NCBI RefSeq assembly: GCF_018977255.1
Contig: NW_024704743.1
Coordinates: 26,042,001-26,106,000, forward strand
Reading direction: 5' to 3'
Origin: Callorhinchus milii
Taxonomy: Eukaryota
DNA: 64,000 nucleotides
Shown: in pieces, positions 905 to 57,447 of the stretch
Layout: each line of letters opens with the position of its first letter
How positions within the stretch are numbered: the stretch's first letter is position 1
Position numbers and translations under genes: made by a program
Notes under the pieces: model-generated
What the model saw: the letters and a program-made list of their open reading frames with translations, nothing else
Told to the model about the DNA's origin: nothing
The model's database searches: none

Positions 905-1000
905 TTATATCTCGCTGTTTAATTTCTTCTTCTCTTCAAACTGCCTGTCCACGATCTTGGACAGAGCTTCCAGAAACTTCTCGACTGTTGCAGATGGCGA
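905..1000 (-). CDS. TRIP13: TRIP13 last coding exon (96 nt incl. TAA)
   Basis: [31 protein letters not shown]; acceptor ctcctcag. Confidence 0.95.
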   Translation of the reverse strand, partial: SPSATVEKFLEALSKIVDRQFEEKKKLNSEI

Positions 1001-4000
1001 CTGAGGAGACAAGGTGGAGAAAAAAATGAGCAGAACACATAAGCATGAGCAAAACAACTCCAAGGCACTATTTTTCCATGCATTTTTGAGGGCCCAGATC
1101 AGCAGCCACAACTGAAGCAGATAAAGTCCATTTAACATGAGCTGAATAATGCAGCAAAATCTTTCAACATCAGACACCAATGCCAGTTACGTATTTACAG
1201 ACTGTCCGTTATAGTATGCAGTATTATTGCTTTTAAGACAAATTGACATGCTATAGCTTTGCACTGGACGTAATGAGGTCAGTTCACAGATCAATTTGAT
1301 ACTTAACCTCATTGAATAGTGTTTATGCCTCTCTCTCCTTTCCCAGACTTTGTTCTCAATTGTGACGTCTATGAAGTTGGACTGAATGCCGTTTATTACC
1401 AGGCTTTTCATGGTTTTAGTTCACTGAACACAAAACCATTTTCACAGTGAGTTGTTCGGATCTGGAATGCATTGCCTGAAAGTGTGGTGGAAGCTGATTC
1501 AATAACAACTTTTAAGAGAGAAGTAGATAATTATTTGGGGAGGACAAGTTTGCAGGGCTATGGGGAGAGAGCGGGGCAGTGGGATTGAATTGGACAGCTC
1601 TTTTCAAAGAGCCGGCACAGACACGATGGGCCGAATGGCTTCCTTCTGTGCTGTATAATTCTATGAAAGGCTGGTGTCCTGCTTAATGATAGTCAAAGGT
1701 CACAATTCACAAGTGCAATGCAGCTTCATGCAATTCAACACCGAGAACAGCATTGGGGAGGGAGGAAATGGGCAATTAGGCTACTGTCTTATTAGAAAGA
1801 TCACAAGGGAGGTTCAGATGAAGAAGGCATTTCAGCTCATCTGATCCCATTCTTCCTGAATACCCACCTGACATCTGGGACGCTACCCGGTATGAAGGGA
1901 GTAGTAAGTTATAATTGTAAGTTGTTGTTGTTTTGTTGACCTTCCTCCCATTACAGCATCAAGCTATTCTTAAATGGCTAATCACTCCCAAGATTTAATT
2001 TGTTATGTATAAAATCCACCTGACTCTCTAGAAAAACTCATTAAGTACCAGTTATAAACTGGCTGTGACAAAACTCACCTGAATGTGCAGAGCATGGGCC
2101 AGAAAGGGAAGCTTTCGCAACACTCTTCCGCTAAGTCCCTCACTTTTTCTAAGGAGGAGGAGGAAGAAAATGTTAACACTGGAAATTTGTATTCCAAATT
2201 CGTACGAGACCCTACGTTAAAAAGCACATCGTAATGACACAAAATGTGGAGTCCATGTCTGCCAACATGGTGTGGATTTATGTCACAGCACCAGGTTACA
2301 TATGACCTCATCTTAGAGCTGAGGCACTGACAACAAAACTACTGCAGGGAGTTTTCTAGTCCAGCCAGTCAGTTTCAGGTTAACAAAAGAGGAGAAACAC
2401 TGTGCAGCAGAGCGCTGCTTATCCACATGCCACTTATCCACATGTGCATTTATCCACATGGGGCTCCAATGTAAGATGTTCCACATGGGCGGTTACGTAC
2501 AAGGTTTCTAGGAACATTCTGACTAGTCTCCATCGCAGTCCTGGCACCTTGCATGCACACACTCATACTTTTACATTCTACAGTTTAGGGCTAGAGATAG
2601 ATAAATAGAAAGTTAGAGAGATTCAGAGACACACGTATACATACACTAAGAGAGAGACACACAGAGAGAAAAGGGCAGAGTGAAATAAAATCAGTGTGGA
2701 GGAGAGAGAGTGAGAGAATGGTTGGCACAGTGTTTCATAATTCTTTAGCTGGTCTTATAGCCAATTTGTATTTTGTGTGAAGTTGGATTATCCACAATGT
2801 TTGCATATCTGTAAAGTGGACCGATCATAATTAGTACGGATTATGATACAGAACAGTAGACACAATACACAATAACTAAATTAGTTATAAATTGCTGAGT
2901 GGATGCAGTGAGTTAAGAGCGCTAACAGGTGTGGCCATCCAGAGGAGGAGTGGATTTACCCACAAACTCTGGTAATGTGGTGAAGCACTGAGGGGAGACC
3001 AGCAACTCCCACAAAGAGATAGGGCAGTGTGGGGAGAAGAGTAGGTCAGTCTCAGGCTGCACTGGTACCCTCCTTGCTGCTGACTTCATAGCACAGGTTC
3101 TGGAATCAGGTAACCTCACAATCTGCCCTCAACAAAATTAGGAAACTAAGGAAAAGAATGGGGAGACAAAGACACCTCAAAAGGAGATGCTACCCTAACA
3201 ATTATGCAGAAACAGTATTTTGGCCTTGTAGGATTCAAGGCTTATTGGTCTAAGAATACAGGACTGCAAAGCAGCCAGAGCAACTTCTGAAAACAGTCAG
3301 GAGTTGCACAAATGTTACGCAACCGACAATAACTGACCAACAACAAATGTTGATCATAATCAGCCAGCGGCGAATTAGTTTTCAATTAATTTCACTATTT
3401 TTCTTCTCACATTTGTCTTCATATTCAGAATCCAATTTATATCTAGTTAGTAGATCTGTAGTCACTTGAAGAAGGGCTTAGGTTTGCTTACCAGCACTTT
3501 CAATAAATCTGACAATCCTAGAACACAGTACTAGAGAGCATCAATTTAAGATACTCAGCAAATGGGGAAGTAAAGAGAAATGTTTTCATTTGCAGAGTAA
3601 TTAGGATATGGAATGCCCTGCCAGGAGTGATGATTGAAGCAGAATCCTTATCAGCTTTCCAAAGGAACTTGATAGATTATGTAAAACAGAGTAAGTTATA
3701 AGGGGTCGCTGGGTGCAGCGACTTCTGTTTTTGTTTTCAGATTTCCATCATCTGCAGTATTTTGTGTTTTGTTTAAGTTATAAAGGTACGGGGAAAGGGC
3801 AAATGAATGGAAATGAAAGGACTGCTCTTAAAACAGCCAGGACAGACACGATGGGCCGAATGGCCTTCTTCTGTGCTGTACATTTCTAAGGATTCATGAT
3901 ACTCATAAGAATAGTCAGACAAGAGGGAAGAATGTCTTACAATTACAGATACAGATCAAGCTTTTACAAGAAACTCACATTGCAATATTCTTAAGTGCTA

Positions 4001-7000
4001 AGCTCAGTCTGGACACATCATTTTCCATGTAGCCTATCATCTGCAGCTCTCTCAGGCTTAGCAGCTGCTGTCTGGGATAGATGATCTGGCACTAAAATGA
4101 AAACATACAATAAGTAAAACCTTCACAGCAAACTGACGTCCAGCAGAGGACAGATTACTTTCCTGTTCCTGTAGATTTGGCAAAGCTGTTGGGTAAGGGA
4201 TTGACTGAATGCGTGTGAATGACACGTTCTGAGCCACAGAATAAGACAAGCCCAGATTTGTTTCCTGGTAAGGACTGGACATGTCTGGGCTCTGAGAGTG
4301 GCCGTCAATCAATATCTTGCGAGCGCATTTAGTATTGTGGGTAAAGTGTACCAATGGAAGTGTGCCCCAGCATGAGGCAGTTTGGAGCAAGCCTGGCAGT
4401 TATTTTTTCACTAAAACTAAATCCATAGCCACATTTATTAACATAGAACTGGCAAAAATATCAGTTGCGGCGGTGGGAAGATCAATTATGCTTCTGGTTA
4501 TGTTGAAACTGCAGCATCCTTGAAAGTTTAAGGTTTCTAAACACTGGCTAACATTCCCCCTAAATAAAATTGCTCATTCACTTTCATGGCTGTTAATGGG
4601 GACACCCCTGCACGCAGAGTGGCTGCCCCATTCACATACAAAAAAGTCACTGCACTTCACGGTGAATCTTGTGAAGCGTTTTGAGACGTGCTCCCGACAT
4701 GAAACACGTGATGTCAAATGCGAGAATTATTATTTATATTCCAAATAAATAACAGGCATCACGAGTTACTGTAAATTAAGTCATACAGAGAGTGGAACAG
4801 TCATGGTCTGGAGCAGCATTTTGAGCTTGCGTGAAAGGCACCATACAAATGTAATTTGTTGTTGGCCATGAATGATATCCGACACTATTAGTTTAAATCA
4901 ATCTGTTCCCTTCTTCTCCCATCTCCTTCCAGCGAAACATTGAACAATCTCAGCACTAAAACAGCTCGAGAAACAGCAACTAGAAATGGGTCAGTTTCAT
5001 ACCTTCATTAATTCTTCCAGGCAAGAGAGGTAGATCTTGAAGATAGCAGCAGCAGACGGTGGACCAATATACTGTTTAATGTCTGCCCTGTCTACAAAGG
5101 CCACGTCAATTTTTTCAGTGATGTTGGAAGTGGTCAGAATTACAACGTTGGGGTACCTGTGTGGTTTGGAGAAAACAACCAGAGATAGTTTAGAGCTCAG
5201 ACAAGAGTCAGAGTGGAGATTGTAAGGGTAGGAGGAGGAGGGATTGAGGCCAGCCCCAAATGCACCTGCTCAGAATGTGTGGCCAATCTTGACCCAGCAA
5301 CTCACCATTCTCACAGTGAGGCTCACTTCTAAACAAGTGAGCACAGTGTAAACGGACGTCCTCCAACAAAAGACATGTGCACTCACAACTACACAAGTAT
5401 ATTTTGCCCCCAATCCTCTCCCCCTCCCGCGTACTCTCATCAGGCATGTTACAGTACCGAGTTTTCAGACTGGTTTTGTTCATATGCAGAACAGAGTCAG
5501 AAACAGTTCAATATTAGGACAACTATCAACTGTCCACAAAATATACCCACAGTATTTTGCCCACAGCAAATTCACTTTACAGTTATATTCTGTGAAGCGC
5601 TTTGAGATGTCTCGAAGACGTGATAAGGCGCGATATCAAATGCAAGGATTATAACTGCTGATCCATTTGATGCTTAATGGTGTTTTCTGCGTTCCGGTTA
5701 TATGGTAATTCACTGCACTTTAAAACAAAAATGTGGAAGATCCCATCAAAGATCCACAAAGATAATAATCTTGAATGATTCTTAGCCTCGCTAAAAGTTT
5801 TTACCTGGCCTGATGATGCTAAGCCACACTTCTGGTCAGATGGTTGTGCAGGTGGTTAGAGACGTACCTTTTGATCTGGTCTATTTGTGTCAGCACAGCA
5901 TTCACTACTCGGATGGCATCGGACGGCTCGGTGCCACCTCTGGAAGCGTTGCGGGCTGCGGTCAAACTCTCCACCTGCAGGAGGCGACAGAATGATTGTA
6001 TAATAATAATAATCCTTGCATTTGATATAGCGCTTTTTACGTCTTCTAGACGTCTCAAAGCGCTTCACAGAATATACTGTAAAGTGAATTGACTGTATAT
6101 TTTGTGGGCGAAACGCAGCAGCCAATTGCGCACAGCAATATCCCACAAACAGTCGTGGATTGAAGTGACCAATTTATTATTGTTTCTTTTCTTGAGTGAT
6201 TATTATTAGGCGTGCGGAGTAAGGAAACTTGCCCAAGGTTTCGCCCTGTCTGGATCGAATTCAGGTCTCTCACTTGTGAGGCAAGTGCTGTCACCATTGA
6301 GCTACAGAACTCCACAGGCTTAACACGTCTTCAAGATGTCTCAAAGTGATTCACACAATATGCTATAAAGTGAATTGACTATATTTTGTGGGTGAAACGC
6401 GGCAACCAATTATGCACAGCAGTCGTGAATTGAGGGACCAATTTATTTATTTATTTTTGAAGGGATTGTTTCCCCTGGAAAGTGATCCGCCAATCGACTA
6501 ACAACCAGGTTCCTACTTACTGCTAGGTAAACAGAAGCGGATGGAGTAAGCCCAAATAAATTGCAACAGACCATTTTTAAATCCAACTTCATGGGTGGTG
6601 AACGAAAGCTTTTTACTCTTAAAAAACAATAATTGTTCAACCTACTCGGAATTACATAATCTGATATAGTTTTATGATGAAAAATTTAAAACACCAAATA
6701 ATCTTTTATACATATTAAAACAAAACCTGTAGTCCTCGATAGGAATTCAGTATCAATCAACTTCAGTCACCCATTGATGCCCTAGAAGAATTGACACCAG
6801 AGGACAACTACAAGCCTTCACATATTGTGTAGTTTACATAGCTAAGCTTGAGTAGTAATACAGTGGCCATCGGAACTACAGAGGACCGGAAAAGACCATT
6901 CAAAGTAAAACAAAACATTAAATTAAATAAATAAATAATCCTGCACTACTCAATGCTCATACCCACCGCGCAACTAAATTCTTTGGCAATCACTAGCTAA

Positions 7001-36300: not shown

Positions 36301-39300
36301 TGTCTGACACATGTGGAAACCCATCACCATCCTTAAGAGTATCCATAACAGACTGAGTTCCAAACATGCCGCATGGAAATTCCTGTGTCTGTAGTGGAAT
36401 GTGCACTCATTCTAGACGGATGCTGACCTAATTCCGAGAATATTAGGCTCAGATTGGCAAGAGCCAAGACTTGGGGACTGCTGGAATATGCTTGGGGTAC
36501 TGCTGGAGATTAACCAGCAAAAGCTGCACAAGTTGCCATTGAAAACACTGAAATCTCACTTTAAAACCTACCTCTTCTAGTGCTTCTTTCCCCCACCCCT
36601 TCTTAATCTGTGTCTGATCTTGCTATTGTTAAGTACTCAGAGATGTTCTCCTACATGAAGGGTGCCGAATAAAATCAAGTTGTTGAACTGGTGAATAAAC
36701 CATTCTCATGAAGTGCTTCTGTTGGTGTACCAACAGTATATTTAATACTGAATGACACCAATATCAATAAAACAATATACACTTATACAATATACATAAC
36801 TCCTTTTGTCTCAGGAGGATGTCTCCAGTGCTTAACACAGCTGACTGAGATCCTGAATTGAGGGGCGGAACGTCTGAGGAGGGGGAAGGTGGCTGAAAGG
36901 ACAGTTGAAAATATCGGCCTTAGCAGGTTTTGAATGTGGGGAGGAATGGGGCAAGTCAGAGGCCAGTGTCTGCTGAGCAGAGGGAGTGGCTGGAGCAGTA
37001 GGGTCAAAGAGATAGGATGGATAATGTAGAACTGTGATGCCAAGTTCTCAATAAGAAACATTTTGAGAATTTTAAATGTTTTACCAACAAGCGAGCAAGG
37101 CAATGTACATTAAAGAACAATACAACAACATCTTGCATTTATATAGAACCCTTCAGGTGGGGTAGCATCCTGCAGCGCTTGACAGTGGCGGAGTCTGACC
37201 ACGAGCCAGAAGGAGGGGGGAGGTGACCATAGGCACAATCAAAAAGTAAGGTCTTTAGGTGGGATTTGAAAGTGGGGAGGGAGGGGCCGAGGCGGAGGGA
37301 TTGAGGCAAACAGTTCAAAGCTTCGGGGCATAGCGGCTGAAAGCACAGGCACCGACAGTGGAGTGGAAGGGGCGAGGGATGAACAGGAGGCTGGAGCTGG
37401 CCGAGCAGAGGCAGCGGGTGGTGGAGTAGGGGATAACCAAATCGGATAGGTAGGGAATTGCTATTTGAAAGCGATTTAGAGGATCTTGAAGTTGATCCGT
37501 TCGGTAATTGGGAGCCAGTGCAGCCTGGCAAGGACTAGTGTGATGGGGGTACAGAGTTTTGTGCAGGTTACTATCTGGAGTTCTAAATTAATTGAATTTT
37601 GTGTATTGTGTATGGTTCACAGTTATAATATATATAACTTACCTTAAATACCACAAGTGTGCACAGACATTCTGGCCTGAGATCATAACTAGTTGCTGTT
37701 ATGAAAGTGCTCATTTTATTCTCTACAGCAAACACAGAACTGTGATAATTCCAGATGTACAAGTACAATGCAACTTTTCATTTTGTTCTAATGTGCAATT
37801 TCTATTCTATTCAGATTGGCTACCTTAAAAAGGAAGGAGATGGTGCTCTGCTGTTTGCTGTTGTAAACCAATCTGATCCAGACACTGAAGGCAGGTTACA
37901 TTCCGTGCTTGGTTACAGAATTGTTTCTGAAATATTCTAACCTCCTTCAATCATTTTTTATGTTTGGAAAAGTGGGAAAAAAACGTAGAATTATTTCGTC
38001 TTAGTGGTGATCTGCCCGATTGTCCATAATTGGCAAAGTGCCAAAGTATCCATTATTTTAATTCATTATCCAGAAATGCATTGAACAAGCAATGTTTTGA
38101 ACTTTCTGTTGACATTTATAATTTTTTNGAAAAGTTTATTGTTACAGTAGGAATATGTAATATGCTTTGTTGCTTTGTGTATGGACTGAATATGCTTAAC
38201 TTTACATGGCTGCATCGAATAGCTGTGCAAATTGATCACATCAAAAGAATGCATGTTCACAATTCAATGCTGGTGGTTGCAGAGGAAGAGATCCACCAAG
38301 TGGATCTGAGTTCCCTTACAACTAAGCTTCAACCAGGCATTAATACCATGGGATTTAAAGATGACCGGAGAAACAAAGCGTTATCAGGTAAGACTTGTCA
38401 ATCTTTACCGACTCACGATTTTGAGTGTTGTTTAAAAGGACTGATGAGATATTGATGAGTGTTTCGAAAAATTCATACTATATTTTGTATAACAGTGGCT
38501 CAGCATTTGGGTAGTCTCTAAATATGCCTGGTGTCACTTGCATTCCTTCGTAACTGCTTTCCTATTGCACAGTACTTTTGTACAAGAACACGTATATTAT
38601 TGGTACGATACAGCTAAAACTCGTTTGCTGAAGCAGGCAGAGGCAGCAAGCCGACATCTAGTGTTATCCCAGCAGCTGGAACTAGGAAGTGGCATCAGGG
38701 AGTGGTAGCCATATTTATAGTGCTCCATTGTTACACAAGATCTAATTTTATGGACCCAATTCATCATGTTATATAACAGGGTCGGTCTTCAATAATTAAG
38801 AGTCAATCGCTTTGTGTGTCAGCAAGGCTTATTTAGTAAGTAGTGATCGGGTCAAAGATTGTGGGCTGAAACCCAATATCGGGACTTCAGATCATAATCC
38901 AATACTGAGGGCCAGTCACTGCGAGCGGGGTTCTTTTTTCTCAGCTCCTGTTAACTCTAAACCAAAGCTCTAAGGGCTAGGGTAGTACCAGCTGGATAAA
39001 AAGTGGGAAGCTTGCCAGATAGTGCTCTCAAATGGCAAACTGGTTTTAGCTGGTTAAACTCCAGCAGTACCCCAATGCACACTCAGTAGTCCCCAAACCC
39101 TGACTGTTGCCAACCTGGCCCAATACTGTCTGATATTAGGTAAGCAGGATGCTTCTCTGTGGGGAGCTGCATTCATTTCCAGACATAGAGAAATTTCCAT
39201 GTGTACGTCGAATGCTGTCTAGTTTGTGAAACCTTGTATATAAAATGGCTGTCGCATTTCCCTACAACGGGCAATAAACTTGATAATAGTTACTATAACG

Positions 39301-42300: not shown

Positions 42301-45300
42301 TAAAATTAAAATGGAATAATATACACTTGAGTACCTTTGAAATGTATTGAGTTTGAGATGTGAACTGTTAAAGCTACAATGTTTTGAGATTCATTAGGAA
42401 ATGTTCTAATATTTGCACTTATTTTTCTCAGAAAAGAAATATTGAACAGAAAGCAAGTAAAGACATCAAATTGAGTCTCGACGAAGTGCAGGTGAGGCCT
42501 GCCAAATGAATATTGCACAATATTGTGGTTCTACTTCCCTCTTTCTCTGCATCTTCCATTATATTTCTATCTCCCTAACTCCAGCCTCTTTGGCCTCCAG
42601 TTCGACTGTTCGGTCCCTTGGGACAAAGTGAAAGGTGCTATGTAAATGTAACTTGTTGTTATTGAAGATGGTATTAAGGATACATGTATGAACACTATTC
42701 ACAAATTCGTGGTCCAGATAACACTTCACAAGATATACTGCCACGAGTATGACTCTTTTTTTGTAGGTAAACAACATCTTTACAAATAAGAGTTCAAATC
42801 TTTTCAAACTGAGGTTTTTTTTTGCACTTTATTTATAACTCAGCCACTGAAATACTGGACCCAGATAAGCATGCTATAAACTACGTTGCCCTGTACTATG
42901 AAACAGTCAACAACAACAACAAATTACATTTGTTTAGCACCTTTCATGTCAGGAGGACGTCCCAGGGTGCTGGACAGTCAGGGATCTGCACCCGAGCTAG
43001 TGGTTGGGATCAGGAGAGGTGGAAGGTGGGGGAGGGGTAGGAGGGTGATCGATGGTGCGGTCAAAGAGGAGGGTCTTGAGACAGGTCTTGAAGGAGGCAA
43101 GCGAGAGGGCGAGGCAGAGGGACTGTGGAATGGAGTTCCAGAGGGTGGAGACAGAGGCTGAAGCCCGCCCGCCAATGAAGGGGCGTGCAAGGCAGGGGAG
43201 GTGACGCAGACCGGAGCCCGCTGAGCTGAGGGAGCGATTAGGTTGGTAGGGGTTTAGGAGGCCACAGAGGTGATTACAGTCACCAGCCATTCCATAGACT
43301 AATACGTGCTCTGCTTCAGCATGAACTCAAAGTTAAGGTAACATCGCACAACCAAATAAATGATAGGAAAGCACGTTATTTTTGTGGTTAGTATCCTCAG
43401 GGTTTGAATCAAGCTCAGAATAAGGTCATCTCTCTTGACTGTAAGCGTGCTAAGTGAAATGAAAAAGTGCGTAAAACTACTTGTACTTTAGCACAAATTG
43501 GCGGTCTCAACCAGACTGCAAGAATTAATCTTGTGAAAAATAGAAATTTCATATTGTGTTCAGTAATGGATTCCTACTTGAAGCGGCAAAAGGCAGAGTA
43601 ATGCCACTATCCTGCATGTGGCTGTAATATAAGATGAGAGACTTATATTGGCGGCTGTTTCAAAATTCTGAAAATTAAAACTATTTGGGCTGAGCTTGCA
43701 ACTATGTTTACATCCTACAGTTGTAATACACAACACATTTGTCCTGAAGGTTCAAACTGAATAACATTTGGTTTCTTTGCAGATCCCAGCAGTCTTCATA
43801 AAAGAAGAACCTAAAATGCAGCCCACTTGTCCTGAAACGTCTAAACCAATCGTGGTGAGAGGCTTTGAATGCTCATGAATAATCTTCTATTTGGTGTAGT
43901 GCCTTTCACTTTGGGAGAACGTCTCAAAGCGCTTTACAGGATATTTCTGTGCAGGGGAGTGACTTTTTTGGGGGGGCATAGGCAGCAACCAATTTGCACA
44001 CAGAAATGTCCCACAAACAGCCATGAATTGAATGAACATTTAATTGGGCACGTGTCGGCCAGGACACTTGAGAGAAACACCTTTCTCTTTTCGAGTAGTG
44101 CCATGGAATCTTTAACATCTACCTGAACAGGCAGACAGTATTTTGGTTTGACGTCTCATCTGAAGGACAGCACATCCAACAATACATCACACCACTAGCA
44201 CTGAATTAGAGTGTCATCCTACACTGTATAAGTTCCAAGTCCTGATGTGAAAATTATTCTGTAAAAGCAATGCCCAAACCCAGTGTTTTAGATGAGGTCA
44301 TGTTTAGCCCCAGAATGATGTTCTTTGTATTGCACTGAATGGCCAGACAATTACTTTCTGGAAACTACTGTAACTTATCTTATTTTGTGGTAAATGGGAG
44401 CAGGGATTCTTTCCACTTGGCTCCTGTTAACCCTGAAAACCAATGTCTTATTAAGTATGGTGGTTCTGCTTGGCAAACTATGTGGTTTTAGCTGGTTAAA
44501 CTACACTAGTGCCCCAACACACATTCTGCAATTCCCTAGCCTTGGCTTTTCCAACCTGTGCCTAATAATTTACAGTATTAATTAAGCATCCTTTTAGGTA
44601 GAGAGTGTGCAATATATTCCAGACACACCGACAATATGTGGAACTCTTATCTGACTACGCCAACTACCTGCTCGCTGGACTTCACAACTCTTCGTATCAT
44701 AATTATTCAGAACTCTGTAGCTCGTGTCCTCTCCCGCACCAGGCTCTGCAAACCATCACCCCCATCCTTGCCTGGCTTCACTGGCCTCCCATCCCTCAGA
44801 GAATCAAGTTCAAAACCCTCATTCTCACCATCAAAGCCCTCCATGGTCTTGTTCCCCTCTACTTCTGTGACCTCCTGAACCCATATCACCCTTTCCACTC
44901 CCTCTGCTTGGCGGACACCGGCCTGCTTCAGGTCCCCTGAACTTCCTGCCCCACCATTGGTGGTTGGGTATCAGCATCTCTGCCCCCACACTCTGCAACT
45001 CTATCCCAAAATCCCTCCGCCTCACTCCCTCTCTTTCCTCCTTCAAGTCCCTTCTAAAGTCCTTCCTCTTTGACCATGTCTTTGACCACCCCCATGACCC
45101 CTACTGACCCCAACTCCCAGCTCAGGTCGAAAACCCCTGATTGTCCAGCGCCCTGAACGTCTTTACGATGTGAAGGGCGCTATACAGGTACAGGTGTTGT
45201 TTGGATACTCATAACTATGGTGATGTACCCATTTGTGAAACACCTAGCTGGCCCAAAGAAAACTACTAATTTAACTACGCGATAAATTCTGTTTTTTTGT

Positions 45301-48300
45301 TTCTCTCCATGTAGAAAAAGTACATTGTCTGTGACTTTGATGAGGGCAGGACTGCTCATCAAAGTTACTGGCAACATATAACCCATACAGGAGTTGTGAA
45401 ATAGTTTTTTTTTCCCTTCTCATCAAAAATGTTCCAGGTTTTCAGTACTGACCAACGCTCAACTTAGTTGTTAGCTGTATGACGTTACTGAGTGAAAATA
45501 AATTGATGAGTGCTAAGGTTACGGAAGAAAAAGAGTTCTTCCTGTGGTGTTAATTGCTTTTGAAGTATTTTCCTCAAGTGGTACTGGGGAAGTTTGTAGA
45601 TCCATTTAGTGCATCAGCATTAGTTAACAAGTCCTGTCCTAAAGTAGAGTCCTGTAGCTCAGTGGTTAGAGCACTCGCTTTGCAAGCGAGAGGCCTGAGT
45701 TCAATTCCAGGCAGGTCAGGGCGAAACCTTGGGCAAGTTTCCTTACTCCACAAGACTAATAATAATCCCCCCCCAAAAAAAACAATAATAAAATTGGGTC
45801 ATTTTCAATCTACGACTGTTTGTGGGACATTGCTGTGCGCAATTGGTTGCCGTGTTCGCCCACAAATATACAGTCAATTCACTTTACAGTATATTCTGTG
45901 AAGCGCTTTGAGATGTCTAGAAGACGTGAAAAGCGCTATATCAAATGCAAGATTTATTATTATTATATTGTAAAGGGAATTGACTGTGTATTTTGTGGAC
46001 GAAATGTGGTATCCAATTGCGCACAGCAGTTTCCCACAAACAGTCGTGGATTGAGTGACCAATTTATTATTATTATTTTGAGCGAATTATTATCCCTGAA
46101 AACGTGAACCGCCAAGCAACTTACTTACTGCTGGGTAAACAGGCGTGTGGAGTAAGGAAACTTGCCCAACGTTTTGCCTCCCCGGGAATCGAACCCAGGT
46201 CCACTCGCTTGCTAAAACTCTTTACTTTTCAAATAGTGCCATGGGATCTTTAACGTCTACCTGAACAAGGTAGATGTGTCCTCCGTTTAACGTCTCATCT
46301 GAATTTCCGGTCAGTGTTATGCGTAGTCGCATCGACGATGTCAGACACTAATGGGAATTCCCCATTAATAAGTGCGCATTGCCAAAGACATGACACAAGT
46401 TAAAAGTTATATCCTCATGTTTCTTTCCAAACCTACTGTAGGTTGGAGGGGCAAGTGGCAGTACTGGAGAGAACCAACCCCCTGTCCTAGATTTCATGCC
46501 TTTGAAATCTTACTCTGACGTTTCCTTGGATATTTCTCTATTGACTTCATTAGGTAAGTAACATTGTGATCTAAAACCAAAAAAATTATTTCAACTAGCT
46601 GAATCACCCGAGTCCTAACTTATTACTTGAAAATGGTTAAATATTTAATCTGCTTTTACCACAGTCGGGCCTCCTTATAAAGTGAGTGCTCTTTGGACGG
46701 GTGGTTGGTTTCAGCGCTCAGACCAGTCGGTTTCCAGCGTACATAAATTGTCCAAATTCCACGTCATCAAGTCACCATCATTTTCTGCACTTTTGTATAT
46801 ACAATGTGTATAATAACTGCAAGTGCATAGCTTGTATTCACAGCATGAAGGAAGTGGTGTTGACAGCAATATGGTGAGCTGGTAGTTAGACTTTTTGGCG
46901 TGCTTCATTGTGCCGGAAATGGTAACAGCCATTGTGTTTAGTAGAACCATATTCTACAGAACCAGTTAAGATGAGGGAAAGATTCATATGCTTGTACTTT
47001 CAATTACATGGAAATCCATATTACCTGGAAGATTTGTGTTGGAACACACTACTTACTGACTTGCTTTTACTTTTGAACCGGGAATGATTGGAGCAAGTTG
47101 TAAAAAAAAAGTGTTACGCTGCTTATGGTGGAGAAAAAATATAAAGAAGTGTGTACAGACGGGGCAGAGGCTGTGGCTGTTCCAGACAAGTTTGGAGTTG
47201 GAATTTCCACAGAGTTTGATGCAGAAGCGGAAGGATAAGCTGCTGGTGTTTACTCAAAAGTTCAAAAGGGGAAAAAAAAAGTCTTCAACTCTGCTTTCTT
47301 CACATGGGTCAAAAACAAACATACTGAAGGTACTATGTTCCCACCTAGTCCAATATCTGGCCTTATTCTGCTGGAAAATCTGTGAGGTTTGTGAAAGAGT
47401 TTGAGGATAACGGTTTTCATTGGAGTGTGGGGTAGTTAATACAACAAAACAAAGGAGGGTTGTTTTCATCTATACTATGGGCAAAACATTCCATGCCCAA
47501 TTTGCAAAATGCATTTAAAAGTGATTGTATTTTATTCTGTATTCCTGTGCATTTTGTTTACTAAATTGCATTAATATTTGGTAATCTGAACTGCTAATCA
47601 TCTGGACAGAAAACAGTGGATACAATGGAACAGAGTCATTTGGATAATCGGCGATATGGTGCATATAACAGGACAATTCCTATCCTATGTTTAAAGGCAA
47701 ATATATCATTTGCATATATTCTGATTACATATGCAAATATTTTATTTTGTGTTATATTTACTATACTATATTTTTCTATAATCTGCTACAAAATATTAAT
47801 AGAATATCTTTTTATATCTTATGTAACATCTGGCAGTATATTTTAAGCAGTAATTCAATCTTGTGTTTTATTGTTTTTATGAGCTCTACCTTCCTTATGG
47901 TTTGATGTAACTGAACTACGCTCTTAATCAATGGTTTCAAGCTTGCTACCAATCATTTCATCTCTATAATTGAGATGTGTTTTTTGTCAAACTCATCCTC
48001 AGTGTTAGAATTGTATTAAGGATTATATGTTTTGAGGAGTTAATGCAAAAGTGTTGTGGAGAAAGTGTTAACTTTTTTTTTCCTCTCCTCTTCTGAGTCA
48101 CTTACATCGACACTTCCTCAAGCAGCTGGTTGAGTGAGCGAATATGGTTCAGACTCCACTGCAACATCTCAACTCCTGCAGATCCATTGATAATTGCTGT
48201 CATTTGAACATTTCCACCTGGGTAGTTATGAGGTTTAATTTTTTTTATATAGTCAGCATTCGATTGGAAAAGCAGCAAGAAATCTGTACATCAGCAAATC

Positions 48301-51300
48301 ACCTGTTTATGACCAAATGTCTTGACTATAAAAATAGAAGTAGGGAACTGTGTGGTGCATATCACCCTATTATTTCCCCTCAGTTTGGGGTTTAAATGAA
48401 ACCTAGCCCAATAGGACCAAATATTCTGCTATTTCTACATAAAAAGCATTCTCAGTCTCAGAAGTCACTGGGAACACTCAACAGGTCAGGCAGAGAGTGA
48501 GTTTACCTTTCAGGTCGATGACCTTTTGTTTCCCGCATCTGTAGTATTTTGCTTTTTATTCACAGTCTCAAATTAGTTTCTAATGGGTGTCAATTCACAG
48601 TAAAAAACTGCCCTTAATTTGTCAGTATATTGACTCGTACTCTGACCATATGATGGATGGTGAGGGAAATAGAAAATATCACTATTGAGGTTGGGGTTGA
48701 GCAGAGGGATCTGTATCTGATCTATTCCTGAACTGGACGTTCTAAATAGAGATTCTGGGTGGCAAAATGGGAAAGCATTCCAATTCCCAGCATTAACATA
48801 GGTGAGCATACAATTCACCAATTTTGTTTTTTGAATAAAAAAAGTAGAAAGATTGCCACTGGTTCTTCCGCAACTTGATTTAAGTATTTGAAAAACCCAT
48901 TACAGATATGCGGAAGTCTGGTCTCCGAAAACAGTTAAAAATGACATCAATCTGAGAATTTAACATTGAATTTTAGGGAAATCGGTGAAGAAGGAGCCAG
49001 ATCATGATGATAACCAGAGGAATCTAGATGAGACTACAAAGCTGCTGCAGGATCTGCATGAGGCTCAGACCGAACGGGTCGGCTCTCGACCCTCTTCAAA
49101 TCTCAGTTCAATCTCCAGCAACTCCGACCGGGAGCAGCACCATCTAGGTATAAGCTAAGTAAAAATAACATTGGCTCCATGTGTCCACAGCACCTCCAGA
49201 TTGATTTTTTTTAAAAAATCTGCCATTCTTTTCACAAGCTTCCTTTTGGCTGTTTGTGAAAAAGTTTGTGTTTTCATTTTGCAGATTTTCATTTGAATCC
49301 CTTCAGACAGTTGCGATTTCTTCCCCTCCTCCCATCTCTCAGTGCACTGTTGTGATCATCTTTTCATTGTCTTTACTGTCTTCGCTGTTGTTTTTCCGTT
49401 AACTGCTTTAGAATTCTCAATTTTTTTTTGCTAAGCTTCACGCATTCACAAATTTTATTCACAAAATACCCTTCAGGGTATAATTTTATCGATGTAAGAG
49501 ATTCCAGTGTAATTGGAGATGGCCTCCATCCAGAGTATATCTTTAAACTTATGTAGGATTGTGCTGATGAAGAAGTTTAATTTTCACACGTAATCTGCAC
49601 AGACTGGCCAAAATGTTTGAATATCTTACTATTTATACTGCAAGATAATAATAATAATCCTTGTATGTTGATATAGCTCTTGTCACGTCTTCTAGACGTC
49701 TCTAAGCGCTTCACAGAATATACTGTGAAGTGAATTGACTGTATATTTGTGGGCGAAAAGCGGTAGCCAATTGAGCACAGCAGTGGTCCCATAAACAGTC
49801 GTGGATTGAAGTGACCAATTTCTTACTGTTTTTTTTCTTGGGGGATTATTATCAGGCGTGTGGAGTAAGGAAACTTTCCCAAGGTTTCGCCCTGCAGGGA
49901 ATCGAACCCAGGTCTCTCGCTTGCGAGGCGAGTGCTCTAACCACTGAGCTGCAGGACTCCGATGTTTGACATTCAGGGTCATAATGTCTTGTGACTGTTT
50001 TGAAACTACTAAAATTAGTTTGGCATTTGTTCTGAAGGCAAAGGAGTTTAACCTTTTCTGTCTCTTGTGCAGTTATCGTGCATTGTCCAACACAGAATGA
50101 GTGCTGGGTAAATATTATTTGTATTTATCAATGCTCAAGTTAGAACCGTAGCCTTCTAAAGCGAAATATGTAACTAGTGTACATATTTTGATTATGACAA
50201 ACCAAACTCAATGTGAATGTAGATTTGCCATGCAAGAAAAAACATCAGGTTTATTGAAAAGTGCTCCTCGAACCATGCACATATAATATAGAGTTTGGGC
50301 TGTTAGGAACATTGGATAGGAATGGAATGAGGCATTTTTTTAAAAAAACAACACTAGGGATCATATTAGATATTAGATTGAATATTTGATTATTTGTAAC
50401 ACTTGTGTTTTAACTTTCTGTTAATATTGACTAGCAGGAAACAAACAGATTCTGTTTTCTCACAGTATGTAAAATGACAGTATTGGTTGAGTTGCAGTGG
50501 TGAGATTCCATCATGAGTAAGTAGCTGTGAGAAAGTGTTGCTGTATTTTCATTGGTCTTTCCCAGTCCTTTGGTTGACAGCAAGCAAGCTATTTGCAAGG
50601 AAATGCTAATTTTAAATCTGTTCTTCATGTGTCTGGCAGTCGGAAAAGCAGACAGAGCATGTGAAAACTACTAAGTTGTTTACAGACTTGTCTGTAAAAT
50701 CTTAAGTTATATGAACTCAACTGATTTTTTAAAACACAGATTTGCCCATATAAATTAGGTTAATTAAGACATACTGAAGATTTTGTCCTGGAACAGAATT
50801 AATTTGCTACTTGCTAACTTCCGAGTATAAATCTTGTGCGTTCCACTGCCAGGTGGTGGCGCTGTTTTAATGGAAGTTCATAAGAACATGACAGTAAGTA
50901 GTCAAATATAAGAAAAGACTAATCGGGTTCCAAACGCTTTTTTACCATATTAATTATCCAACTAAGGGCATATGGATGTATTTTAAATCAACTGAATGTT
51001 TTTTGTCTCTATTTACTCGCTTGGCAAAGTATTGCAAACACTGATCACTTTGAATAAAGATTTTTTAAAAATCTTTTAGAATACAATTTCTATTTATGTC
51101 CTCTGGTCTTGCTTTCTTCTTGACTTACTTTTGATATTTTATATACTTTGGCAAAGTTCCCTTAACTACCTTCTTTCTAATGCTAACTGAAACTGCAACT
51201 ATTGCTGAAGTGGGGACATTTTATATTTTTTCAGAATTTACATTAAAAGTTAATGTTTTTCATTTAGAGTTTGGTTTAATGGCTGCAGGATGTATGGAGT

Positions 51301-54300
51301 CAAGTTATTTCCCCCCTGATAAAATGTCATACTTATGTAGAAATTATATTTTTCAACATCTTGAATCCATTACTGAAGTGGTATACAGGGTCATCAAAAG
51401 TTCTTGAATAACAAGTAATTAAACTGGGCAATTCGAAAAGTGCTGCTACCCCACAATATTATTATATTAGTATATTGGCAGATGGGGGAGGGAAGAGTCT
51501 TGCAAGCAAGTTATAAACCTGAAAAGGATAAGCACTTGGATTAATTGTATGGACTTGTAATTGAAGGAAAAAGTTTCCTTAATTAATTTGGCAGTTATAG
51601 TAATTGATAATCATATGTTTGAATAAAGAATACGTATTGGAGAGAAATGGAATTTGGTAGGAATCTTCAATGAATCTCTTATGATGTGGAATGGTGTCTG
51701 GAAATTTGCTCAACCTATGTGCAGTGTAGAAAAGCATTGCCGTTAATCGAAGGCTTTTAACTTGTTTTGAATTTCCACCTTGGATCCTGTTAACATCACT
51801 GTTGTTCTAGGTGGAAGATACCACTGTCGTTTCAGGCCTCACCGATACCTGTGCTGCAAATGCACACTAACAGTGGTAATGTTACCATGGAAACTAGGCA
51901 AATGTGAAAACGTGGGAGGGTATTTATTTGCTTGATTAGATTTCGGAGTAAAACCTCCACGCTACTGTTGTGTTGAACTATGAAGCAGGAGATCTGTATC
52001 TGGCAATAATCAATACAGTGATTTGTCAGCTTTAACCCATCTGCTGCCAAAAGTATAATGTCTCAGCACACAAACTATGGCTCAGTTGATCTGTCTTGAT
52101 CTCAAGTGACTCAAAGCATAAACTAATAATTACACTTAATTACTTCTCAATGAAAGGTTACAGAGCATGTTTAAGTGACTAATGATATCTGTCCTGTAGT
52201 CACACGAGTGTCATCACTCCCACTTTGAAAAAACCCTCCCTTGATGCGTCGCAGCTATCAAGCTACCGGCCCATCTCCAACCTCCCCTTCCTGTCCAAGG
52301 TCCTTGAAAGAGTTATCGCCTCCCAGCTGCGCTCTTTCCTCTCCACCCATGCATTATACGAACCCCTTCAGTCGGGTTTCCGTGCTGCCTATAGCACAGA
52401 AACTGCCCTGGTCAAGGTCACCAACGACATCTTGACCATCTGCGACCAGGGCTCCCTCTGGCTCCTCGTCCTCCTCGACCTATCGGCAGCATTCGATACG
52501 GTTGACCACGCTATCCTACTCCACCGCTTGTCCTCCCACCTCAACCTTCAAGGCTCTGTCCTTGAGTGGTTTAGGTCCTACCTCTCCCACCATCTTCATT
52601 TTGTTTCCACAAACGGCTTTTCCTCCACCCCCCGCACTGTCTCGTGTGGTGTCCCTCAGGGCTCTGTCCTCGGTCCCCTCCTCTTCACCCTCTATATGCT
52701 CCCACTTGGTGACATCATCCGCAGACATGGGGTTAACTTCCACATGTATGCGGATGACACCCAACTCTACCTTTCCTCCTCTACCCTCAACTCCACGACC
52801 ACCGATGTCCTGACAGCGTTGCCTGTCTGACATCGAGTCCTGGACGAGAAACAACTTTCTTCAGCTCCACGTGCGCAAAACCGAGGCCCTCCTGATTGGC
52901 TCACGTCAACGCCTCCGCACCTCAGGCGCCGACACCATCAGCATCCGAGGCTGCACTCTCCACCTCTCAAAGCAGTCAGGAACCTCAGGGTTCTGTTCGA
53001 CCCTGAGCTGCCCTTTCTCCCTCATATCCGCGCCACAACTGGCACCGCCTTCCATCACCTCCGGAATATCGCCAGACTACGGCACTACCTCACCCCTCAC
53101 GCTGCTGAAACCCTGGTTCACGCCTTTATCACCTCAAGGCTGGACTATGGGAACTCTCTCCTCGCCGGCCTTCCCGGCACCTCCCTCCACAAGCTGCAGG
53201 TCATTCAGAACTCTGCAGCTCGTATACTGTCCCGCACCAGGCTTCGCGACCACATCACTCCCACCCTCGCTCGCCTCCACTGGCTCCCCATCCCCCAGAG
53301 GATCGAATTCAAGATCCTCATCCTCACCTACAAGGCCATTCACGGCCTGCTCCCTCCTACCTCTCAACCTACTATCCCCCTACCTACCTGCCCGTACCCT
53401 CCATTCCTCTGGCTCCGGTCTGCTCCACATCCCCCGCCCCAACCGCCCTACCATCGGTGGCCGGGCCTTCAGCCTCTCAGCCCCGAGGCTCTGGAACTCT
53501 ATCCCCCAGTGCCTTCGCCGCCTCCTCCCTTTCCTCCTTCAAGGCCGGTCTCAAGACCTTTCTCTTTGACCGTGCCTTCAGCTCCCCTCCCAACTCTCTA
53601 CCCCCACCTCGCTCCCTCCCTTCCATCCCCTCATCCTGACCATTTTCCCCCTGCTCGGGTCCTGACCCAACTGTCCAGCCTTGGGACATCCTCCCGACGT
53701 GAAAGGCGCTCTATAAATGAAATCTTGTTGTTTTTGTGTTGTTGAGTGACACTATCAGTCTTGCTAGATTGATTTCACCAATGTGTGCGGATTATGCAAT
53801 TGGAAGTGTTATCTTGGCTAATGCATTTTCCTAGTGAGAGTTTGATTAGTTGTCTGGTAACTATTAAAACCAATGCTATTAACCCTCCAGTTCCATCTGA
53901 GATACCTCACGTGACTGTGGAAGCAAGTCCCTCTTTTTCCCCAACTTGCTAATATTGATCAGCTCATTGTAGTGATGGTATACAGGAAGGTGCAACTTTG
54001 GGCACATTTGAAGGAAAATATTAAAAAATGGAAACACTTGACATTTTCAAAACAGGAGGGCATTCAATCCATCGTGTATGTGCTGCTGTTATCTTCCCTT
54101 TTTAATAATCCCACATTCCACCATCTCTTAACGTTTTTACTTCTCAGCTGCTTATCCAGTTGTGTTTTCAATGATTCTATTGATCCATTTTTAACAGTTA
54201 CTCATGTTTGCTTAAGTGAGTTTGAAATGGGGTTAGAAAAAATATCTGCATTGTACATTAATAGTCAACCACAAAATTAAGGATGTGTCTTCTGTTCATT

Positions 54301-57300: not shown

Positions 57301-57447
57301 GTGTTTCGTCTTTTTACTTGTACAGGAAGTCCTCCTCATCTAAATGTCGGTGAACAGGGAGATCTAGTCCAAGACTTTCGTGAATTTCTTCAGGCCCCAG
57401 CTAACGCAGCTGCAGGAAACCTAAACCGCAGTACTGATAACTCTTAA
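21296..57447 (+). CDS. BRD9: BRD9 bromodomain-containing protein 9, whole gene span (17 coding exons, 1998 nt, ~665 aa)
   Basis: Spliced frame [12 protein letters not shown]...[13 protein letters not shown]...[12 protein letters not shown] (bromodomain)...DUF3512 region...STDNS*. The N-terminus and the head-to-head position with TRIP13 identify BRD9 rather than BRD7. Confidence 0.97.
21351..21960 (+). repeat. Polypurine G-run low-complexity repeat (GGGA / GGGACAGGGG units)
   Basis: About 600 bp of almost pure G/A on the plus strand, starting directly after the BRD9 exon 1 donor. Confidence 0.95.
22654..22978 (-). mobile_element. tRNA-Ala SINE (short form, L2-type loop)
   Basis: Full-length copy. 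Additional degenerate minus-strand copies lie at 22027-22230 and 22400-22520. Confidence 0.92.
23425..23560 (+). repeat. Degenerate (CA)/(GA) microsatellite
   Basis: ACACACAG/AGAGACAC runs. Confidence 0.85.
23655..23968 (+). mobile_element. tRNA-Ala SINE (short form) with probable TSD
   Basis: Full-length copy flanked by TAGAGTCGAGT (23648) and TAGTGTCGAGT (23970). Confidence 0.92.
24451..24600 (-). mobile_element. CR1-type 3' tail fragment
   Basis: CATAGAA repeats followed by GGAGCAGGAGTAGGCCAT..., the reverse complement of a CR1 3' terminus. Confidence 0.7.
24949..25169 (+). CDS. BRD9: BRD9 exon 2 (221 nt, GC donor)
   Basis: [40 protein letters not shown]...EDRRRRK; donor AAG|GCAAGT. Confidence 0.93.
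25495..26190 (+). mobile_element. L2 3' fragment
   Basis: [17 protein letters not shown]...[13 protein letters not shown]...[15 protein letters not shown]; stem-loop and (TTG)n tail. Confidence 0.92.
26197..26690 (-). mobile_element. L2 internal ORF2 fragment
   Basis: TCCLDPLPT and [23 protein letters not shown] in minus-strand frames. Confidence 0.85.
28052..28187 (+). CDS. BRD9: BRD9 exon 3 (136 nt)
   Basis: [45 protein letters not shown]; aatag|...|gtagag. Confidence 0.93.
28817..28877 (+). CDS. BRD9: BRD9 exon 4 (61 nt; alternative start 28820)
   Basis: (V)[19 protein letters not shown]; tandem AAG-TAG acceptor; donor AG|GTAAGC. Confidence 0.93.
29180..31073 (+). mobile_element. Degraded L2-clade LINE fragment
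   Basis: ORF2 pieces ([37 protein letters not shown]) with an internal deletion, 3' tail and (TTG)n. Confidence 0.92.
31690..32062 (-). mobile_element. tRNA-Ala SINE (long form)
   Basis: Full-length and close to the family consensus. Confidence 0.93.
32275..32419 (+). CDS. BRD9: BRD9 exon 5 (145 nt, bromodomain ZA loop)
   Basis: [48 protein letters not shown]. Confidence 0.97.
33706..33816 (+). CDS. BRD9: BRD9 exon 6 (111 nt, bromodomain BC loop)
   Basis: [37 protein letters not shown]; tgcag|...|gtaaga. Confidence 0.97.
34723..34901 (+). CDS. BRD9: BRD9 exon 7 (179 nt; internal in-frame acceptor at 34783)
   Basis: [59 protein letters not shown]. Confidence 0.95.
35300..35660 (-). mobile_element. 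Degraded L2 3' fragment
   Basis: Tail TCACGTCGGGAGGACGTC and body similar to other L2 copies. Confidence 0.75.
36064..36196 (+). CDS. BRD9: BRD9 exon 8 (133 nt)
   Basis: [44 protein letters not shown]. Confidence 0.96.
37120..37550 (-). mobile_element. L2 3' fragment
   Basis: [24 protein letters not shown]; tail at 37120. Confidence 0.82.
37815..37890 (+). CDS. BRD9: BRD9 exon 9 (76 nt, GC donor)
   Basis: [25 protein letters not shown]; the phase-1 donor AAG|GCAGGT is required by the next exon. Confidence 0.9.
38283..38387 (+). CDS. BRD9: BRD9 exon 10 (105 nt)
   Basis: [35 protein letters not shown]; donor CAG|GTAAGA. Confidence 0.93.
39544..39676 (+). CDS. BRD9: BRD9 exon 11 (133 nt)
   Basis: [44 protein letters not shown]. 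Confidence 0.95.
40191..40490 (+). mobile_element. tRNA-Ala SINE
   Basis: Full-length copy, followed by a second tail fragment at 40530-40620. Confidence 0.9.
41148..41259 (+). CDS. BRD9: BRD9 exon 12 (112 nt)
   Basis: [37 protein letters not shown]. Confidence 0.95.
42432..42491 (+). CDS. BRD9: BRD9 exon 13 (60 nt)
   Basis: [20 protein letters not shown] (cf. human RRNVPMKPPDEAK); ttctcag|...|gtgagg; phase 0-0. Confidence 0.82.
42909..43270 (-). mobile_element. L2 3' fragment
   Basis: [13 protein letters not shown]...IGGRAS...LWNSIPQSL; (CAA)n tail. Confidence 0.87.
43783..43854 (+). CDS. BRD9: BRD9 additional exon 13b (72 nt, no human counterpart recalled)
   Basis: [24 protein letters not shown]; gtttctttgcag|...|gtgaga; symmetric phase 0-0; no stop codon. 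Confidence 0.62.
44650..45200 (+). mobile_element. L2 3' fragment
   Basis: [29 protein letters not shown]; 3' tail. Confidence 0.85.
45647..46212. mobile_element. Tail-to-tail inverted pair of tRNA-Ala SINEs (+ 45647-45966; - 45967-46212)
   Basis: A plus-strand copy directly abuts a reverse-complement copy. Confidence 0.9.
46442..46553 (+). CDS. BRD9: BRD9 exon 14 (112 nt)
   Basis: [37 protein letters not shown]; ctgtag|...|gtaagt. Confidence 0.94.
48977..49147 (+). CDS. BRD9: BRD9 exon 15 (171 nt)
   Basis: [56 protein letters not shown]. Confidence 0.96.
49644..49959 (-). mobile_element. tRNA-Ala SINE (short form)
   Basis: Full-length copy with anticodon arm CTCGC-CTCGCAA-GCGAG. Confidence 0.93.
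52205..53743 (+). mobile_element. 5'-truncated L2-clade LINE with RT core, frameshifted
   Basis: [15 protein letters not shown]...QSGFR...[12 protein letters not shown]...[10 protein letters not shown]...YADD, then the HWLP...GGRAFS...LWNS C-terminus, a 3' stem-loop and a (TTG)n tail. Frameshifts near 52818 and 52970. Confidence 0.95.
57326..57447 (+). CDS. BRD9: BRD9 last coding exon (122 nt incl. TAA)
   Basis: [39 protein letters not shown] (cf. human SPSRLSVGEQPDVTHDPYEFLQSP). Confidence 0.93.

Follow-up and report, generated by a model that had tools for sequence, protein, structure and literature searches.

Human BRD9 contains a poison exon, exon 14a, that lies in intron 14, is derived from an ERV and is activated by mutant SF3B1, as set out in passages of several papers (PMC7469106, PMC8773931, PMC7464941, PMC12962102, PMC8652244). 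A sequence-only reading of the Callorhinchus milii locus had cited a primate ERV-derived poison exon in the counterpart human intron; review passages bear out the exon and its origin, and the passages at hand from PMC7469106, PMC10789245, PMC12962102, PMC8773931, PMC12884080, PMC8652244, PMC7464941 and bioRxiv 10.1101/2024.09.17.613571 do not call it primate-specific. Poison exons are also described, in parts of PMC10789245, for the bromodomain genes BRD2 (exon 3b) and BRD3, and a passage of a 2026 review calls BRD9 autoregulation poorly defined. Other systems that bear comparison, as excerpts of the papers present them, are decoy exons in retained introns (Parra et al. 2018, PMC6097662), detained introns (Boutz et al. 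2015, PMC4281565) and SRRM3/4-dependent neural microexons (bioRxiv 10.1101/2024.09.17.613571). Our search of the literature found nothing on a BRD9 microexon, on BRD9 intron 14 in fish or on BRD9 splicing in chondrichthyans.

Here we report that intron 14 of BRD9 yields unproductive splice forms in C. milii RNA. We lean toward the view that this intron is spliced internally, and that 17 nt proposed as a poison microexon are the start of a long stop-carrying exon (46665-48221), not a microexon.

BRD9 and its intron 14

The window, by which we mean the whole 64,000-nt stretch of contig NW_024704743.1 that was analyzed, contains the C. milii BRD9 gene: window exon 15 is 100% identical to C. milii BRD9 records, and RefSeq isoform X1 (not to be confused with RNA run X1 below) maps to window positions 21296-57447 in 17 coding exons (Table 1). 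The intron at 46554-48976 is flanked by an exon ending DISLLTSL and an exon beginning GKSVKKE. It is the 15th coding intron in RefSeq X1, and its position (phase 1, before GKxVKKE) is that of human and amniote intron 14.

That reading also took the surroundings of the candidate to be non-repetitive. The intron is indeed single-copy, but for a fragment of ~70 nt of a short interspersed repeat, to which 40 of the 40 other scored matches of the intron in its own genome map; no second copy of 46554-48458 was present among the scored candidates, a search that very old repeats could escape. Repeats found within the window make up 27% of it and none of intron 14, and further long repeat-free stretches are present elsewhere in the window; the scarcity of repeats in intron 14 is a mild hint of constraint. 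Rfam gave no match inside the intron.

Table 1. Positions of BRD9 exons and of proposed or used splice features of intron 14 (window coordinates; a slash marks an exon/intron boundary)
Feature	Position	Strand	Basis or remark
BRD9 exon 14 (orthologue of human exon 14)	46442..46553	+	donor TAG/GTAAGT; RNA contigs in 8/8 runs
111-nt mini-intron	46554..46664	+	sometimes retained, giving stop 46559-46561; removal would account for contig starts at 46663
Proposed 17-nt microexon	46665..46681	+	acceptor likely used; donor AAA/GTGAGT not seen used (8 runs)
Putative long poison exon, 1557 nt, stop 46811-46813	46665..48221	+	5' end from contig starts and simulation; 3' end from the 48221 to 48977 join
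Alternative acceptor 47032, stop 47085-47087	47032..47087	+	C. milii isoform P0136 (UniRef A0A4W3JZV5); X7 contig start 47030
Putative 124-nt poison cassette with a pyrimidine-rich acceptor (48098), a stop at 48205-48207 and donor TGG/GTAGTT	48098..48221	+	annotation and RNA join
Short interspersed-repeat fragment, sole repeat found in intron	48459..48530		genome matches; high contig depth
Further donor TAG/GTGAGC, last exonic base 48801	48799..48807	+	joined to exon 15 in X7
BRD9 exon 15	48977..49147	+	171 nt, in frame; often skipped
BRD9 last coding exon	57326..57447	+	stop 57445-57447

Unproductive splicing of intron 14

Of 14 public runs, none on record as RNA, we examined the eight (X1-X8) that had been guessed to be RNA and were chosen for containing part of the stretch; they carry no tissue labels and were studied as assembled contigs, which show the presence of joins, not their level, and are probably blind to minor joins. 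Since exon-exon joins are present, these runs are RNA. Among the matches listed, exon 14 was joined to exon 15 in two of the eight runs (X2, X6) and to exon 16 in four (X1, X4, X5, X8). Exon 15 was also joined, again among the matches listed, to two donors inside the intron: one at 48221 (48221 to 48977, GT..AG) in three of the eight runs (X2, X3 and X4, from 2 studies), and one at 48801 in a single run (X7, side 137). In X2, contig depth was 99 for the join from 48221 and 81 for that from exon 14, values that are not a measure of level. All eight runs had contigs within 46682-47800. Contig cover was missing at the end of intron 13 (8/8 runs), at the start of intron 15 (7/8) and over AT-rich 47750-47830, gaps that we do not use as evidence.

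Two of 21 C. milii isoforms (P0136, P0140) leave exon 14 into intron 14 and then stop, and annotation and RNA together point to two acceptors in the intron besides 46665. The X7 contig start at 47030 falls on the AG of the annotated acceptor 47032, although a neighboring contig that ends at 47029 also fits an indel. Acceptor 48098 comes from RefSeq isoform XP_007887844.1 (P0140) and donor 48221 from the RNA joins, so the two ends of the 124-nt cassette rest on separate evidence; X3 and X4 contigs pass 48098 unbroken, and, among the matches listed, no single contig extends as a spliced exon from either 46665 or 48098 up to 48221. With an annotated acceptor and an observed donor, the cassette would be a second poison form.

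We scored splice sites with approximate matrices. The acceptor of exon 15 was the weakest, with a score of 0.6, and the 12 further acceptors that had been placed correctly scored 4.1-14; donor 48221 was also low (2.3). These ranges leave out acceptors 24950, 28819 and 38225 and donor 43855, whose boundaries lay 1-2 nt off. The weak exon 15 acceptor is consistent with the frequent skipping of exon 15, which is in frame and is annotated too (isoform P0121). It would also slow the removal of intron 14, such that internal acceptors (46665, 47032 and 48098, the last two presumably used as annotated) and donors (48221 and 48801) could compete for it.

A stop codon well before the last exon junction leads to NMD, by the established EJC rule. 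Because the stop of every form that we modeled lies 159-1831 nt upstream of the last junction (185-1831 nt for the four forms ending at 48221), the unproductive forms are predicted to be NMD targets or to be retained in the nucleus, either of which would lower BRD9 output.

We considered that these forms might be splicing noise, in which intron 14 is slow to leave because of the weak exon 15 acceptor and the use of cryptic sites is neither regulated nor under selection. Many sites are used (48221, 48801, 47032, 48098 and 46665), two of them of poor consensus; X1 contigs also extend over unspliced RNA into intron 15; the microexon motif pair is near chance, and our searches found no homologue. 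Moreover, the stretches free of variants around the splice sites did not reach significance (P 0.34 and 0.13). However, donor 48221 recurs in three runs from two studies and survived graph simplification, and together with the annotated acceptor 48098 it delimits a tidy 124-nt exon that carries a stop. We regard noise as a somewhat unlikely explanation; if it is correct, this is an ordinary leaky intron preceding a weak acceptor.

The proposed 17-nt microexon

The proposal concerned a poison microexon that begins 111 nt past the end of exon 14. The letters there are as described (TTTAATCTGCTTTTACCACAG, then 46665-46681, then GTGAGT), and the distance from exon 14 is exact. Also exact is the reading on inclusion, SL-VGPPYK-GNR followed by a stop at 48986-48988, which lies 159 nt upstream of the last junction, that between exons 15 and 16 (compared to 50-55 nt under the NMD criterion), and read-through beyond the donor at 46681 does reach a stop, as had been stated. 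The segment has the size of a microexon (3-30 nt between AG and GT), and the 111-nt mini-intron offers branch-point-like A residues at 46618 (-47) and 46648 (-17) and a TGC at -14, that is, the UGC between branch point and AG that is a feature of SRRM3/4 microexons.

The splice sites had been called strong. Both are present, but at 7.7 (acceptor) and 8.5 (donor) on our approximate matrices they are only moderate, mid-range among the real sites of the BRD9 gene. With these two scores as the thresholds of a pair search, the 36-kb gene had a single acceptor/donor pair 3-30 nt apart in the sense direction, 46665-46681, and the antisense strand had none. Nevertheless, this does not place the motif beyond chance: shuffling the gene gives an expectation of 0.35 such pairs (20 shuffles), and when intron 14 was shuffled, 6% of the copies (19 of 300) contained one. 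The motif of AG, 17 nt and GTGAGT is near chance and by itself is weak evidence.

The contigs suggest that the acceptor is likely used with read-through of the donor. In X1 and X4, which belong to one study, contigs begin exactly at 46663, on the AG common to the end of exon 14 and acceptor 46665, and extend beyond the proposed donor, as far as 47459 in X1 and 46998 in X4. If starts are uniform, the probability that at least 2 of 24 listed contig starts fall on this base, which had been named beforehand, is 5e-5, and X2 and X6 cross 46662 without a variant. The 111-nt piece is not always removed: X2 has a single unbroken contig from 46525 to 48222 that crosses it unspliced, and a contig of X6 (46629-46790) crosses its end unspliced. 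Elsewhere, exon 14 contigs end at 46554 and exon 15 contigs start at 48976, or they run through.

We simulated k=31 contig graphs for seven isoform mixtures. A mixture of the canonical form, the skip and the extension to 48221 reproduced X2 exactly, including a 58-nt junction contig (33 matching bases), a 199-nt exon 15 contig from 48976 and an intron contig from 46525. A start at 46663 appeared in only two of the seven mixtures, those that combine an exon 14 to 46665 join and read-through with retention of the 111 nt. The exon 14 to 46665 join itself was not seen in the eight runs, and the 30/30-nt contig predicted for it is probably below the reach of the method. When the microexon path was retained, exon 14 contigs ended at 46553 and exon 15 contigs started at 48977; no run shows these ends, and thus the microexon is not a main path.

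Could the 17 nt still be a true poison microexon, perhaps neural and SRRM3/4-dependent, with low inclusion and degradation by NMD? The gene has no second pair of this kind, the acceptor of the candidate is likely active, and the TGC at -14 and good donor are features of SRRM3/4 microexons in the excerpts cited above. A minor form could also escape detection, since the simulated microexon junction pieces align to the genome over just 30 nt, probably too little to be seen, and NMD would deplete it. Nonetheless, none of the eight runs (which lack tissue labels) has the microexon joins or any letters between joins, among the matches listed; the contig ends (46554, 48976) differ from those predicted; and contigs that start at 46663 read through the donor. 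The microexon tail is also missing from all 193 exon 14-containing proteins compared and from the 21 C. milii isoforms, and six motifs had no match in the MicroExonator tables (2,988 mouse and 1,906 zebrafish rows); a search at mouse BRD9 coordinates was likewise blank, a weak result. We therefore think a true poison microexon quite improbable.

Thus, the proposal was right that intron 14 undergoes poison splicing, in stop-carrying forms that are independent of human exon 14a sequence. It is not supported as to the 17-nt cassette as a unit, because contigs that start at its acceptor read through GTGAGT and the donors joined to exon 15 are 48221 and 48801, nor as to the "ancient" switch, given the mouse and zebrafish tables and the lack of such a tail in the BRD9 proteins searched. 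In the long exon that we favor, exon 14 would join acceptor 46665 and then read through GTGAGT, which at 46682 may bind U1 without splicing and so act as a decoy donor.

Comparison with exon 14a and other systems

The C. milii forms resemble human exon 14a, as its passages present it, in gene, intron position and phase, and in a premature stop well upstream of the last junction. They differ from it in that the human exon is ERV-derived and switched by mutant SF3B1, whereas the shark forms involve several sites and are found in public RNA with no known mutation. We asked whether one of the shark exons might be a true homologue of exon 14a, a poison exon that predates bony vertebrates. Our exon 14 profile had 49 matches among 1.84 billion representatives; in a partial chimpanzee isoform (P0184) and its orangutan twin (P0189), exon 14 continues into a 45-residue non-genomic tail, which we take to be exon 14a. 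The tails, ape and shark alike, have V as their first residue (T being the first base of the exon) and run for 36-49 residues before the stop, and a start-anchored global alignment to the 46665 tail, one of three tests, gave P = 0.04. In contrast, local protein scores were 18-22 (P about 0.3), the best score against the intron (31) was mid-range among 52 control stretches, and the back-translated profile (15.4) exceeded only 2 of the 52. The P0184 tail thus has no detectable sequence in common with the shark tails or intron, by protein and back-translated comparisons that stayed at background, and the genome matches scored showed no repeat at the shark exons. On sequence, we consider it very improbable that a shark exon is an orthologue of exon 14a, despite the common intron and phase. 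The ERV insertion was reportedly placed near the base of amniotes in the original exon 14a paper, by Inoue and colleagues in 2019.

Other searches addressed how widely the arrangement occurs. In two fish-like proteins the entire intron is translated, as 34 and 58 residues (102 and 174 nt); such introns are too short to hold the shark architecture, which is therefore not universal in vertebrates. Searches of metagenomes with exons 14 and 15 returned no vertebrate locus, the paralogue BRD7 has no intron sequence in common with BRD9 intron 14, and the tail of P0140 had no homologue, a weak result because that search did not return P0140 itself.

The shark forms are like the BRD2 and BRD3 poison exons in affecting a bromodomain gene and in unproductive splicing of independent origin. 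The latter are controlled by conserved RNA pairings, according to the parts of PMC10789245 at hand, whereas the RNA fold of the shark region was no better than shuffles (z 0.24) and the region has no long inverted repeat. By analogy, the shark BRD9 forms may work like the poison-exon control of bromodomain genes, with regulation and conservation putative. As in the excerpts on decoy exons and on detained introns, intron 14 is partly retained and has internal splice sites that give non-productive forms; a decoy role is a candidate, and nuclear detention putative, in the shark. BRD9 was absent from the searched supplements of PMC6097662, PMC4317164 and PMC4358997, and from those of PMC7821500, whose tables carry transcript ids such that gene names may not show; supplement file 4 of PMC4281565 has one BRD9 row. 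Finally, the 17-nt candidate is similar to the SRRM3/4-dependent microexons, as excerpted, in its size, its UGC between branch point and AG and its good donor. It is unlike them in that no inclusion was seen in eight runs, it breaks the frame, its upstream intron is 111 nt and no conservation was found.

Discussion

Unproductive splicing of intron 14 suggests a broader scenario, which we offer as a doubtful speculation: an old rheostat of jawed vertebrates, in which the weak exon 15 acceptor would keep intron 14 open and lineages would add differing poison exons, such as 46665-48221 and 48098-48221 in the chimaera and the ERV-derived exon in amniotes. In cancer, mutant SF3B1 would then hijack a late tenant of a ~450-million-year-old ncBAF dosage switch. 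If the unproductive forms are regulated and common to sharks and rays, the tuning of BRD9 dosage via intron 14 would go back to early jawed vertebrates, and a control point would already have been in place where the cancer exon of humans lies.

Other features of the window

Some further observations concern the BRD9 family. The BRD7 paralogue (L004/L005, G000:C14:9195000-9204900) has a homologue of exon 15 that is 53% identical. In a protein of Albula (P0174), exon 14 is likewise followed directly by exon 16, so the exon 15 skip may be old. Several BRD9 isoforms of sharks and rays (Mustelus, Leucoraja, Rhinoraja) include an alternative exon downstream of exon 15 and have its tail in common, to which a repeat-free part of C. 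milii intron 15 (49961-52485) had only a non-significant match (51358-51372, E 1-2).

In the gene itself, two introns start with GC instead of GT (25170 and 37891), and two alternative coding segments are missing from many isoforms: 43783-43857, an exon before exon 14 that is common to marsupial and reptile isoforms, and 38223-38280, where the exon at 38223 has an acceptor further upstream. Rfam found tRNA-like matches within SINE copies at 45648-45719 and 49887-49958, and model P0002 wrongly takes one SINE as the last exon. A divergently transcribed AAA+ ATPase gene has exons at 908-5507 on the minus strand and is presumably TRIP13, the usual neighbor of BRD9. RNA contigs of intron 14 show A-to-G differences at 47109 and 48312, which may reflect alleles or editing.
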